Below, one piece after another: positions 7,117-28,515 of a DNA stretch of 28,515 bases; the stretch's first letter is position 1; each line of letters starts with the position of its first letter. The translations under genes were made by a program, and so were the position numbers. The notes beneath the pieces were generated by a model, which had not been told where the DNA came from, did not search any database, and saw only the letters and a program-made list of their open reading frames with translations. This DNA comes from Candidatus Omnitrophota bacterium (GTDB lineage Bacteria; Omnitrophota; Omnitrophia; Omnitrophales; Aquincolibacteriaceae), in the NCBI GenBank assembly GCA_043803685.1, contig JAZDJU010000061.1, positions 1 to 28,515 of the forward strand, in the 5' to 3' direction.

Positions 7117-7168
7117 GGACGGGATTTTAGCATGGGCTAAAAAAAAAGATATGCTATATTACCGTCCA
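7116..7168. promoter_or_regulatory. Symmetric divergent promoter with two back-to-back extended -10 elements
   Basis: Minus strand reads TGC-TAAAAT-7 nt-ATG (MFS gene); plus strand reads TGC-TATATT. The arms 7116-7133 and 7151-7168 form an 18-bp inverted repeat matching at 15 of 18 positions. Confidence 0.6.
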
Positions 7169-7281
7169 AGTCTTTATTTCTTTTCATTCATGGTGCCTTG
7201 GGCGGCACGGATTACCTTTGTTTTTCAAATCAAGGAGAATCAGTGCCGCTTTGTTGAAATGGATACGCATTGGGACCGCTC

Positions 7282-10347: not shown

Positions 10348-10592
10348 CTAGCACTGTTCTCCATTTGATTTTGGGGGGTTAACAGTACTGCCCAAGTTTT
10401 TATTTCATTTCACGAAGGGCGACTTGGACTGCACTGACTTTAATTCAAATTAAGGGTAGTCAGTGCTGCCCCAATCTCAACCCTGTTTCGATTGATAAGA
10501 ATTGGGACTGCACTGATTTCCAATCATTTTTTATTAATGAAAATCAGGTGCTGTACCGCATACCCCTAATTTCGAATGTGATGCGGTACTAG
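10348..10592. repeat. Tandem array of six different hairpin cassettes (34-40 nt) joined by CTG and bounded by CTAG
   Basis: CTAG|CACTGTT..AACAGTA|CTG|CCCAAGT..ACTTGGA|CTG|CACTGACT..AGTCAGTG|CTG|CCCCAAT..ATTGGGA|CTG|CACTGATTT..AAATCAGGTG|CTG|TACCGCAT..ATGCGGTA|CTAG. Confidence 0.85.
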
Positions 10593-11014
10593 TAAAGGGT
10601 GATCCGTCGCCGGGAGGCGTCGAGGATCTCAAACCGGATATGCCGGGCTTTCGCAGGAATAAGGTCCCCGGCTTTTTCAGCCCACTCGACGCAGGAGATC
10701 GCACGAGGATCGTTCACAAAATCCTCGAACCCGATGTTCTCTAATTCCTCGAGAGAATTCAGGCGGTAGCAATCAAAGTGGTAAAGCGGTGTCTTGACTT
10801 TGTAGATATGCATCAGCACGAAGGTCGGGCTCTTCACCTGCGCCGAGCGTTCCAACCCCAGGCCTTCGGCAAGCCCTTTGATGAACGTTGTTTTCCCGCT
10901 CCCGAGCTGACCTTCAAAACAAAGCACCGTTCCGGGCTTGACCTCGGAAGCAACGCTCTTGCCGAGATCCATCGTTTCTTGGGCAGAAGATGTTGTCACC
11001 GTTCGTTGCTTCAT
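10589..11014 (-). CDS. tsaE: tRNA threonylcarbamoyladenosine biosynthesis ATPase TsaE
   Basis: GQLGSGKTTF, VKSPTF, LYHFDCYRL and VEWAEK. Start taken as the ATG at 11014, just after the thiL stop. Confidence 0.95.
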   Translation of the reverse strand: MKQRTVTTSSAQETMDLGKSVASEVKPGTVLCFEGQLGSGKTTFIKGLAEGLGLERSAQVKSPTFVLMHIYKVKTPLYHFDCYRLNSLEELENIGFEDFVNDPRAISCVEWAEKAGDLIPAKARHIRFEILDASRRRITLY

Positions 11015-11015
11015 A

Positions 11016-11948
11016 TCAGAAGTGTGAAAACCCTTTTTGAGAAAGCTCAAGTCCAGCAGCTGGCTTTCCGTTCCGGCGCCAAGAGATCCCGGGAGTTCCC
11101 TTTTCGATCCTCCCGATCCAACTGAGAGGCGTTCCGGGAAATTTCTTTCTCCATTGCCTTTGAATTTTCATCCTGTTCGCGTTCGTGACCGTGAACAAAA
11201 TCTCGAAATCCTCACCGTCACTTAAGGCGCGACGTAGAGCTTTCGCCTCATGGCCGCAACTCATAGTCTTTGCGTCATGAGACACCGGAATTCCGTCGAG
11301 ATCAAGCACTGCTCCCACCTTGGAGCTTTTGAGAATATGGAACAGATCCTGAACAAGACCGTCGGAGATATCGATCATGGCACCCAGCCTCGCATTCTGC
11401 GCGAGAAACAACCCTTCACGGACACGCGGCGTGAATTCATGGTGATGGCGCAAGAGAGAACCGCCCAAAGCGCCCGTCACCGCGATCCAGTCCCCTGGCT
11501 TCGCGCCCGACCTCTTTACGATACGATCCGGTGAAGCCTCCCCAAAGATCGTCACGCTCGCGAAGAACTCTTTGGACTTTGAAAAATCCCCACCGACGCA
11601 GACAACGCCAAATTGTTTGGCCAACGCGAACAGTCCCTTATAAAAACGCTTCAACCACAAAGTGGTAACATAAGAAGGCTTTCCGATATTGATCACAAAC
11701 GAGGTAGGTAACGCTCCCATCGCGGCCATATCGCTCAGATTGACCGCAAGCGCCTTGCGACCGATCTTCTCGGGGCTCAGAGTCTTAAGCTTGAAATCCA
11801 CATTCTCCACGATCACATCAGATGAAACGATAAGCCGTTTATTTTTCGCCACACTCAGCACGGCTGCGTCATCCCCGATCCCGATCAGCACCCGCGAGGA
11901 GCGAGTCGCCTTCTTTCTCAGATACTCGATGAATGAGAATTCGTCCAT
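11016..11948 (-). CDS. thiL: Thiamine-monophosphate kinase
   Basis: MDEFSFI, IGIGDDAA, AVNLSDMAAMGA, GGD, RSGAKPGD, MIDISDGL and GEDFEILFT. Confidence 0.95.
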   Translation of the reverse strand: MDEFSFIEYLRKKATRSSRVLIGIGDDAAVLSVAKNKRLIVSSDVIVENVDFKLKTLSPEKIGRKALAVNLSDMAAMGALPTSFVINIGKPSYVTTLWLKRFYKGLFALAKQFGVVCVGGDFSKSKEFFASVTIFGEASPDRIVKRSGAKPGDWIAVTGALGGSLLRHHHEFTPRVREGLFLAQNARLGAMIDISDGLVQDLFHILKSSKVGAVLDLDGIPVSHDAKTMSCGHEAKALRRALSDGEDFEILFTVTNANRMKIQRQWRKKFPGTPLSWIGRIEKGTPGISWRRNGKPAAGLELSQKGFSHF

Positions 11949-25681: not shown

Positions 25682-25853
25682 CTATCCTTGTCTAAAACTT
25701 GATTTCTCAAATGGTTGACAAGGACAGCCCTGACTATCATTTTCTTTTTCTGAATGGTAGTCAGGACAGCCCCAATCTCAGCTCCGCTTCGATTGATTGG
25801 GATTGGGACTGCCCCAATTTCAACTCCGTTGAAATTGATAGGCATTGGGACTA
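25682..25853. repeat. Tandem array of four hairpin cassettes (39-40 nt) joined by CAG/CTG and bounded by CTA
   Basis: CTA|TCCTTGTC..GACAAGGA|CAG|CCCTGACTATCATT..AATGGTAGTCAGGA|CAG|CCCCAATCTCA..TGGGATTGGGA|CTG|CCCCAATTTC..CATTGGGA|CTA. GGAC recurs at 25722, 25764, 25806 and 25848 (42-nt period). Confidence 0.88.
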
Positions 25854-28356: not shown

Positions 28357-28398
28357 CTGTCACAATACTTATCAAATTCAACGAAGTTGAAATTGGTG
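28357..28398 (-). repeat. Inverted copy of the CCCCAAT-type cassette with an adjacent CTG junction, upstream of clpC
   Basis: Reverse complement of 28360-28398 is CACCAATTTCAACTTCGTTGAATTTGATAAGTATTGTGA, 33/39 identical to 25812-25850. CTG at 28357-28359. Confidence 0.8.
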
Positions 28399-28515
28399 TT
28401 CACGCATACTCTGTTGTTAAGGAAGGTTACTTACCTGTTGTAGGAACCGTAAACGTTACAACTCAAGATGTTGATGTTGATGTTGTACTTGTTCTCGAAA
28501 CCTACACCATTACCT
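28399..28515 (+). other. Start-less coding-like fragment resembling a PEGA/Ig-like surface-protein repeat; possibly foreign or chimeric
   Basis: Open frame VHAYSVVKEGYLPVVGTVNVTTQDVDVDVVLVLETYTIT. About 40% GC by hand count, with GTT/GTA Val codons unlike the neighbouring genes. Confidence 0.5.

Follow-up and report, generated by a model that had tools for sequence, protein, structure and literature searches.

The closest described counterparts of the repeats reported here are the REPIN/BIME elements, in which a doublet of inverted extragenic hairpins is the replicative unit (PMC3116915) and for which TnpA-REP has been described to cleave between C and T and to carry out strand transfer, within a model of single-stranded BIME (ssBIME) circles (PMC3333891). 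Site choice by TnpA-REP and by transposases of the IS200/IS605 type has been attributed to DNA-DNA pairing with a guide (PMC8266576). The TIRYTs, which make up Y1 subclass 2.1, are flanked by repeats of the GGGGWSAS type that are also found as dimers and groups (PMC3733652, PMC6006769), and the same literature already describes stop codons supplied by REP ends, as well as REP heterodimers spaced 1-2 bp apart in Opitutus terrae (PMC3733652).

The locus considered here lies in a 28,515-nt stretch, referred to as the window, of contig JAZDJU010000061.1 (positions 1 to 28,515, forward strand) from a Candidatus Omnitrophota bacterium (assembly GCA_043803685.1); the source genome, G000, is 91% complete. 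An initial annotation had described six hairpin units (36, 38, 34, 39, 40 and 35 nt) joined by CTG and bounded by CTAG, with the tsaE stop inside the right-hand CTAG, and every one of these features was found where it had been placed, all five junctions reading CTG on the plus strand (Table 1). In each CTG the two outer bases, C and G, pair with the opposite end of their own unit, so that the true hairpins measure 38, 40, 36, 41, 42 and 37 nt and are spaced by a single base. Letters A to F are assigned in minus-strand order, which is the direction of tsaE. All six are oriented toward the centre of the array, as set by an ACC motif in the loop, and all seven array junctions contain CT on the plus strand, whereas CCG/CGG junctions elsewhere do not. 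The array is genuine and lies far above chance expectation. Chains of at least three hairpins linked by CAG/CTAG, a pattern whose frequency had been proposed as a check, occur eight times in G000 and in none of three block-shuffled genomes, and a linker-free scan returned 76 chains of at least two hairpins against 8 in one shuffle. None of the 23 window ORFs scanned is a mobile-element gene: beside tsaE, the surroundings encode a TPR protein and housekeeping functions. Promoter and terminator scans returned none, and three weak Rfam matches (E 3-8.9) were not meaningful. A decayed lone C unit lies upstream of clpC (window 28359-28399).

Table 1. Family features in the window; doublet membership follows the probable reading argued in the text.
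Feature	Position	Strand	Basis
CTAG direct repeat, F end; duplicated target core of outer A-F doublet	10348..10351	.	sequence and 4-nt repeat statistics
Hairpin F, probable right member of outer A-F doublet, 38 nt including closing pair; GGAG in loop	10351..10388	-	17 free AF doublets in G000
CAG (CTG on plus strand) direct repeat bounding B-E doublet, E side	10388..10390	-	AF vs ABEF at orthologous sites
Hairpin E, probable right member of middle B-E doublet, 40 nt	10390..10429	-	free BE doublets
CAG direct repeat bounding C-D doublet, D side	10429..10431	-	
Hairpin D, probable right member of innermost C-D doublet, 36 nt	10431..10466	-	free CD doublet at G000 C114:3570
Central CAG junction of C-D, predicted site of next nested insertion	10466..10468	-	nesting pattern
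Hairpin C, probable left member of innermost doublet, 41 nt; left arm starts with GGGAC-type half-site as in TIRYT ends	10468..10508	-	
CAG direct repeat bounding C-D doublet, C side	10508..10510	-	
Hairpin B, probable left member of middle doublet, 42 nt	10510..10551	-	
CAG direct repeat bounding B-E doublet, B side	10551..10553	-	
Hairpin A, probable left member of outer doublet, 37 nt	10553..10589	-	
CTAG target core with native tsaE stop (TAG, minus strand 10591-10589)	10589..10592	.	homologous stop codon, array absent in relatives
tsaE, host gene intact, outside element	10589..11050	-	PF02367, E 1.7e-38
Second family array C[C K]J, four units, on clpC stop codon; TAG direct repeats	25684..25851	-	
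B-E-type doublet at CGG within remnant C hairpin; CGG direct repeats	7164..7246	-	

Within the array the units share size and fold and differ in sequence, as had been observed from the window alone, but genome-wide this does not hold, because each unit A-F has 5-19 further copies in G000 at 80% identity or more, the best other copy being 90-97% identical. A catalogue seeded from the window units comprises 133 loci in G000. The earlier proposal of a mobile unit is upheld in that the family is mobile, non-coding and inserted at CWG/CTAG-type sites. The CTG linker, thought invariant, is so in the window array only; across the genome linkers follow the form Y-N-R (CTG 31, CAG 23, CCG 8, TTG 6, CAA 6, CGG 5, TAG 3, others 1-2). 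Loops are AT-rich and about 20 nt long, and all unit types carry the ACC motif next to one arm, which gives them a direction, although its frequency is partly a matter of construction as the motif was used for orienting. The commonest polarity, '<>', was seen at 15 loci, with many units not orientable. Stems covary at several positions, for example among 57 doublets, position 7 of A being C-G in 44 and T-A in 12, and position 7 of F T-A in 48 and C-G in 9. The arms of C, J, K, M and E yield GGGAC-W-G or GGGGC-W-G junctions, while those of A, F, B, D, G and H do not. Conservation in the flanks is limited to three bases per side.

The family is concentrated in one group of Omnitrophota. Of 18 genus genomes, 17 contain a match to the query region, whereas none was obtained in 12 genomes belonging to other families. 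Searching with a generic two-unit pattern yielded 5-65 matches in 18 of 19 genus relatives (0-1 for a reversed-pattern control); elsewhere among 401 sampled genomes of the phylum the number was mostly 0-2, G386 and G240 being among the few exceptions that look real. The exact A-F junction pattern was found across the genome collection at 20 loci, 16 in entries titled Omnitrophota and four in 'uncultured bacterium'. A BLAST of the units against phage and plasmid sequences, which had been suggested for their variable middles, returned a single 21-nt match at E 0.9, attributable to chance, and the 16 + 1 matches from pattern scans of viral contigs all lacked a paired hairpin. Distant Omnitrophota families (G386, G362) were noticed to have similar two-hairpin doublets, with arms of the GTAC type (L228, L231, L232, L235); one such doublet is identical in both genomes including its flank, suggesting transfer or shared contamination.

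Units occur mostly in pairs. At the 96 multi-unit loci of G000 the number of units is two at 78, four at nine, six at five and three at four, that is, even at 92, and by eye most of the 37 single-unit loci have a decayed or interrupted partner. A doublet spans 73-83 bp and places two different hairpins head to head with one base between them (in G000: AF 17, CJ 15, GH 13, CM 7, CK 4, CE 3, BM 3, BE 2, CD 1); A, B and C are left members, and D, E, F, J, K and M right members. Longer words mostly read as balanced brackets (ABEF, ABCDEF, CCKJ, CCKM), with CMCF a tandem exception. Among the 32 A-led loci of G000 there are 17 AF, one A with an untyped unit, five ABEF, four ABCDEF, one ABCDE followed by an untyped unit (a divergent F) and four lone A, and no ABF, AEF or similar word; 92 A-containing groups in relatives add six ABEF, one ACEF, one AC-x-F and one degenerate three-unit A-C'-F. 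A change in unit number, which had been proposed for comparison, is seen at three orthologous sites that hold AF in some species and ABEF in others (L065/L112 vs L138; L057 vs L141; L069/L224 vs L140), pairs that are compatible with either gain or loss of BE. The one DNA sequencing run considered, with a share of 0.05, gave no reads or contigs over the array. Exceptions to pairing include the clean lone A at C72:83952, which has a CTAG on either side. In relatives, six loci with a lone A proved to be decayed or interrupted doublets next to ordinary genes. The even counts, the occurrence of AF, BE and CD as free pairs, and the series AF, ABEF, ABCDEF together lead us to read the window array as A[B[CD]E]F: its six hairpins are very probably three nested, non-coding, two-hairpin doublets. 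We are similarly confident that the doublet would be the unit of movement, and that arrays would grow from the middle by nesting.

Filled and empty sites, together with flanking repeats, indicate where the doublets land. The array is not shared by relatives: each of the 13 with the tsaE locus has an empty site, and since in most of them the stop lies at the homologous codon, the target of insertion was a native stop. Across the A..F elements, 36 of 52 are flanked by identical 4-mers (shuffled mean 11.8, maximum 21 in 10,000), namely CTAG (17), TTAG (10), CTAA (7), CCAG (1) and CTGA (1), leaving 16 with no perfect flanking repeat. That TTAG/TTAG and CTAA/CTAA occur 10 and 7 times, and TTAG/CTAA never, identifies these as direct repeats and not inverted tags. 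Elements led by B or C instead have a 3-nt repeat in 27 of 41 cases (shuffled mean 7.5, maximum 17). Comparison with empty sites bears this out: C-K doublets within the F loop are flanked by two TAGs (L085, L086, L092), and two G-H doublets interrupt REP-type stems that are restored on removal of the doublet and one CG. Repeat length thus depends on doublet type, being 4 nt for A-F, 3 nt for those at CGG, CAG, TAG or CTG, and 2 nt for those at CG. An unrelated GC-rich hairpin repeat also sits in the F loop in G005 (L120, L121, L124).

Stop codons are strongly over-represented at these sites. One adjoins 20 of 28 A-led arrays in G000 (71%), against 13.9% of non-coding YTAR sites, an expectation taken from a crude ORF call that overcounts intergenic DNA. 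In 82 A..F matches, of which about three are false positives of the pattern, the unit that faces the stop is A in 31 cases and F in 12; start codons come after F in 19, as opposed to 4. Landing on stop codons would have allowed about one element per 20 kb to accumulate inside operons.

The flanking repeats are matched to the inside of the doublet. In 34 AF doublets with perfect repeats, the first base of the repeat complements the internal linker in 32 and the last base in 33; in 24 B/C doublets the outer repeat bases complement the linker in 23 and 24 (shuffled 15.5; reached in 1 of 10,000). As a consequence each hairpin retains its closing pair even though one partner is a base of the target. 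Where there is a mismatch (L059, L107, L129), the outer base follows the target. A nearest-neighbour lineage test gave 29 of 34 for F (p 0.0015) and 25 of 34 for A (p 0.09), p-values that are overstated as the copies are related. The matching would be expected if lineages favour targets that pair with their own linker, the reading addressed by the lineage test, and also if arms undergo conversion once a doublet has inserted, in line with the aroC site, where arms and both repeats change in step between species. Closed dumbbells were obtained in silico on circularising three of four free C-led doublets that have CGG-type junctions.

Sequence comparison shows that A-F inserted on the CTAG of the tsaE stop codon, duplicating it; in the nested reading B-E occupies the central CAG of A-F and C-D that of B-E, a 3-nt repeat accompanying each. 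The probable order of gain is B-E and then C-D, while the composite may also have come ready-made, as ABCDEF is present at five loci. As the mechanism we propose that a doublet would leave single-stranded DNA in the form of a small circle, take up a dumbbell fold and re-enter at a Y-(N)0-2-R core able to pair, through its two outer bases, with the internal linker of the doublet, under the action in trans of a TIRYT-type Y1 HUH transposase (subclass 2.1). The central junction of a doublet is itself a Y-(N)-R core between half-sites, and arrays would for that reason grow from the middle. We consider this overall explanation, of three nested non-autonomous doublets akin to REPIN/BIME, moved through single-stranded circles by a Y1/TIRYT enzyme, to be reasonably likely. 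In a bolder version the doublets would represent the smallest self-targeting mobile DNA known, being dumbbells of ~75-85 nt with a built-in linker guide of 2-4 nt, moved by a single-strand recombinase tied to no repeat so far and landing harmlessly on native stops; we regard that as fairly unlikely, but if it were true, a change of linker would retarget insertion (among CTAG, TTAG, CTAA, CGG and TAG).

The family resembles REPIN/BIME (PMC3116915, PMC3333891) in that an extragenic doublet of inverted hairpins appears to move, clusters are even, copy number at a locus varies between relatives, and a single-strand circle can be modelled. It differs in lacking the GTAG/GGAG foot, whose absence had been remarked on at the outset: of 510 unit ends, GTAG is found at 1, GGAG at 1 and GTGG at 3. 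The arms of the two partners differ, and the single long hairpin that REPINs form is not open to them; in further contrast, loops are ~20 nt and AT-rich with an ACC motif, spacing is one base, growth is by central nesting instead of in tandem, the 2-4-nt direct repeats match the internal linker, and no cognate RAYT was found. Given the missing GTAG foot, and as no cognate gene was found among the loci examined, we do not file the family as a member of REPIN/BIME.

The TIR repeats of TIRtrons (PMC3733652, PMC6006769) are alike in having no REP foot, in occurring singly, as dimers and in groups, and in the GGGAC-type half-sites of C, J, K, M and E, but the junctions of TIR repeats are equal-arm palindromes whereas the half-sites of the family differ, the arms of A, F, B, D, G and H do not fit GGGGWSAS, and no TIRYT gene was seen with family units as its ends. 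Nesting and target matching are not described for TIR repeats in the text covered. With IS200/IS605 elements (the IS608 model, PMC8266576) the family shares two different end hairpins and, apparently, the selection of sites through bases at the foot of the hairpin; it differs in that its hairpins are terminal and not subterminal, in that constraint extends to both flanks, which together make up a direct repeat, and in having no TnpA or TnpB between the ends. As to IS110/IS1111 elements, no IS110 recombinase is present in G000, and flank conservation ends at three bases per side in place of a long bridge-defined target. The initial annotation had called this the best candidate in the window for an undescribed system. 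That stands in part: the array seems to work like REPIN/BIME or TIR repeats, but in the literature covered, most of it freely accessible, we found no account of the family, of hairpin heterodoublets nested at their centres or of base matching of this kind. Judged from its sequences, the family is a previously unrecorded and unusual variant of REP-like selfish DNA that is common in one group of uncultured Omnitrophota.

Its value would be descriptive if it were merely one more TIR-repeat family. Beyond that, it bears on how REP/REPIN-type repeats spread and form mosaics, and it does so with readable footprints, namely nesting in the manner of brackets, orthologous sites with and without the element, and covariation between flanking repeats and internal bases, from which a dumbbell-circle intermediate, a cut site and a targeting rule can be predicted directly. 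We found no demonstrated substrate of a TIRYT in the literature covered.

A Y1/TIRYT transposase is our candidate for the mover, at somewhat better than even confidence. G000 has three Y1 genes: L001 is an intact TIRYT, L002 a fusion that lacks the first HuH histidine, and L003 is degenerate. L001 (G000 C72:67078-67861) has its own, different 25-bp terminal inverted repeats. The ends of TIRYTs in this lineage are built as half-site, one base, half-site. The metagenomic TIRYT L297 has arrays of 38-45-nt hairpins at one-base spacing on both flanks, of sequences other than the A-M units, and TIRYTs L047/L204 have in their flank a 35-nt hairpin with an AT loop, set between GGGAC-A and T-GTCCC. Hairpin pairs are not enriched near TIRYT genes in general: pairs with one-base spacing lie close to 11 of 80 metagenomic TIRYT genes, and 11 of 80 shuffles have them as well. 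L297 alone is convincing. A search for arrays beside an HUH/Y1, IS5-like or Nop-domain gene had been suggested; no Y1 gene with A-M units as its ends was found among the loci examined in these incomplete genomes, units lying within 1.5 kb of such genes at few loci only, and no clade of the Y1 tree tracks the repeat. The element-rich genomes G006, G015 and G031 (82-95% complete) gave no Y1 match; G013 has neither elements nor Y1. L002, with a C-M pair upstream, was considered as a partner gene and rejected, as its first HuH histidine is missing and the pair is absent from its orthologues L034-L036.

Several Y1-related observations were made alongside. L002 (G000 C106:35530-36078), L034-L036 and L043 represent a conserved Y1-like gene in which the first HuH histidine is replaced (DRIH) and the Y-x3-NP motif is absent; in relatives the gene is fused to a transmembrane segment and a C-terminal domain (~420 aa), and a stop splits the G000 copy. 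A gene of this type looks like a domesticated, inactive transposase fold. A GGGGTC-W-SACCCC palindrome related to the ends of L001 has 41 matches in G000, counting both strands. A separate Y1 clade in this bacterial family (L037-L044, L052, L053, L196-L200) has short flanking hairpins centred on CG, and near-identical non-coding stretches of ~80 nt that follow the Y1 gene in L042/L197, L052 and L053 may be a conserved RNA leader.

Integron integrases act on folded single-stranded attC sites, and an unrecognised enzyme other than a TIRYT, be it a host or a mobile recombinase acting on folded single-stranded DNA with the linker as a 2-4-nt guide, would account for the missing cognate Y1 locus and for element-rich genomes without Y1 matches. 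The matching at the core resembles site-specific recombination, and a stop-codon share of 71% against ~14% expected is strong. We nonetheless hold such an enzyme to be unlikely. The best match to the integron integrase model TIGR02249 in G000 scores 95.6 bits, below the cut-off of 265; IS110, present in 5 of 20 genus genomes, is absent from G000, and no family unit occurs at the genus IS110 loci. Moreover, L297 shows that a TIRYT gene can already be flanked by the grammar of hairpins spaced by one base, and genes flanked by repeats are often left unassembled in incomplete genomes.

Transposition by DDE enzymes has characteristic target rules, with a TA duplication for IS630/Tc1, 4-bp duplications for IS5 and IS701, and targets of the YTAR form. 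The doublets might on these grounds be MITEs of a DDE transposase of the IS630/Tc1, IS5 or IS701 kind, each hairpin being one transposon end and nesting an insertion beside an existing end. The 4-nt repeats of A-F (CTAG, TTAG, CTAA), its preference for stop codons and the three PF01609 genes of G000 accord with this, but sister doublets with 3-nt (CGG, CAG, TAG, CTG) or 2-nt (CG) repeats do not agree with a fixed DDE stagger. Outer ends have only 3-5 nt in common, compared with 7-10 paired bases per hairpin, so there are no shared terminal inverted repeats of the MITE type, and the linker matching is left unexplained. The ends of the three PF01609 genes are unrelated to the units or not visible. 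No IS630 or IS701 gene was detected in G000, IS701-type genes being present in 3 of 20 genus genomes. A scan of G000 for long inverted repeats found no transposase with A/F ends and no gene-carrying form, nor did inspection of the genes between neighbouring arrays. We therefore regard a DDE partner as quite unlikely.

A role in RNA could also be what maintains the array, either through guide RNAs of ~40 nt, similar to those of TIGR systems and to the stem-loop RNAs first offered as an alternative, or as a stabiliser of mRNA 3' ends or a source of ribosome-binding sites. The hairpins fold cleanly on the transcribed strand; on one strand, G-T exceeds A-C by 78 to 39; stops and starts are distributed unevenly about A and F, as given above; and some insertions have been retained across species. 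TIGR arrays (PMC12045711) likewise have tandem units of ~36-42 nt with stems that are variable but palindromic. Their box C (CCA)/box D (UG) pattern with 8-12-nt spacers, however, is absent from all six units on both strands; G000 has no Nop-domain Tas gene (PF01798, 0 matches) and the array no Rfam family; and the loops are not unique spacers, since they recur with 90-97% identity in copies dispersed over ~130 loci and match no phage or plasmid beyond the chance hit. The site is empty in all 13 relatives, and direct repeats and nesting would go unexplained. As the main reason for the array, an RNA role thus appears very unlikely, though an effect on RNA is conceivable as a by-product, and retained elements may act as a ribosome-binding site for the next gene through GGAG in the F loop. 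This GGAG was noted ~9-14 nt ahead of the next start codon at L065, L112 and L138 (the aroC start) and at L063, L070, L135, L209 and L224, and several elements with it are located in overlapping stop/start junctions; insertions on stop codons would sometimes bring a GGAG for the next gene.

Finally, the notion that single hairpins are cassettes added one at a time at CWG sites, as originally supposed, or that a six-unit ancestor shed units by CAG slippage, draws on the same triplet bounding every unit, the lone A between two CTAGs and the four three-unit loci, but is highly unlikely and largely refuted by the even counts, by A-led arrays that vary only by a central pair, by left and right unit types that nest like brackets and by the existence of BE and CD as free doublets.

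Two further features of G000 deserve mention. An IS4-type element with 20-bp inverted repeats (L072, C110:3945-5247) lies in a TIRYT-like palindrome and has an apparent 8-bp duplication. A C-M doublet appears to be in frame near the start of a 7,108-codon ORF (C123:54196-75519), and a second very long ORF, on C98 near 21305, overlaps a doublet too.
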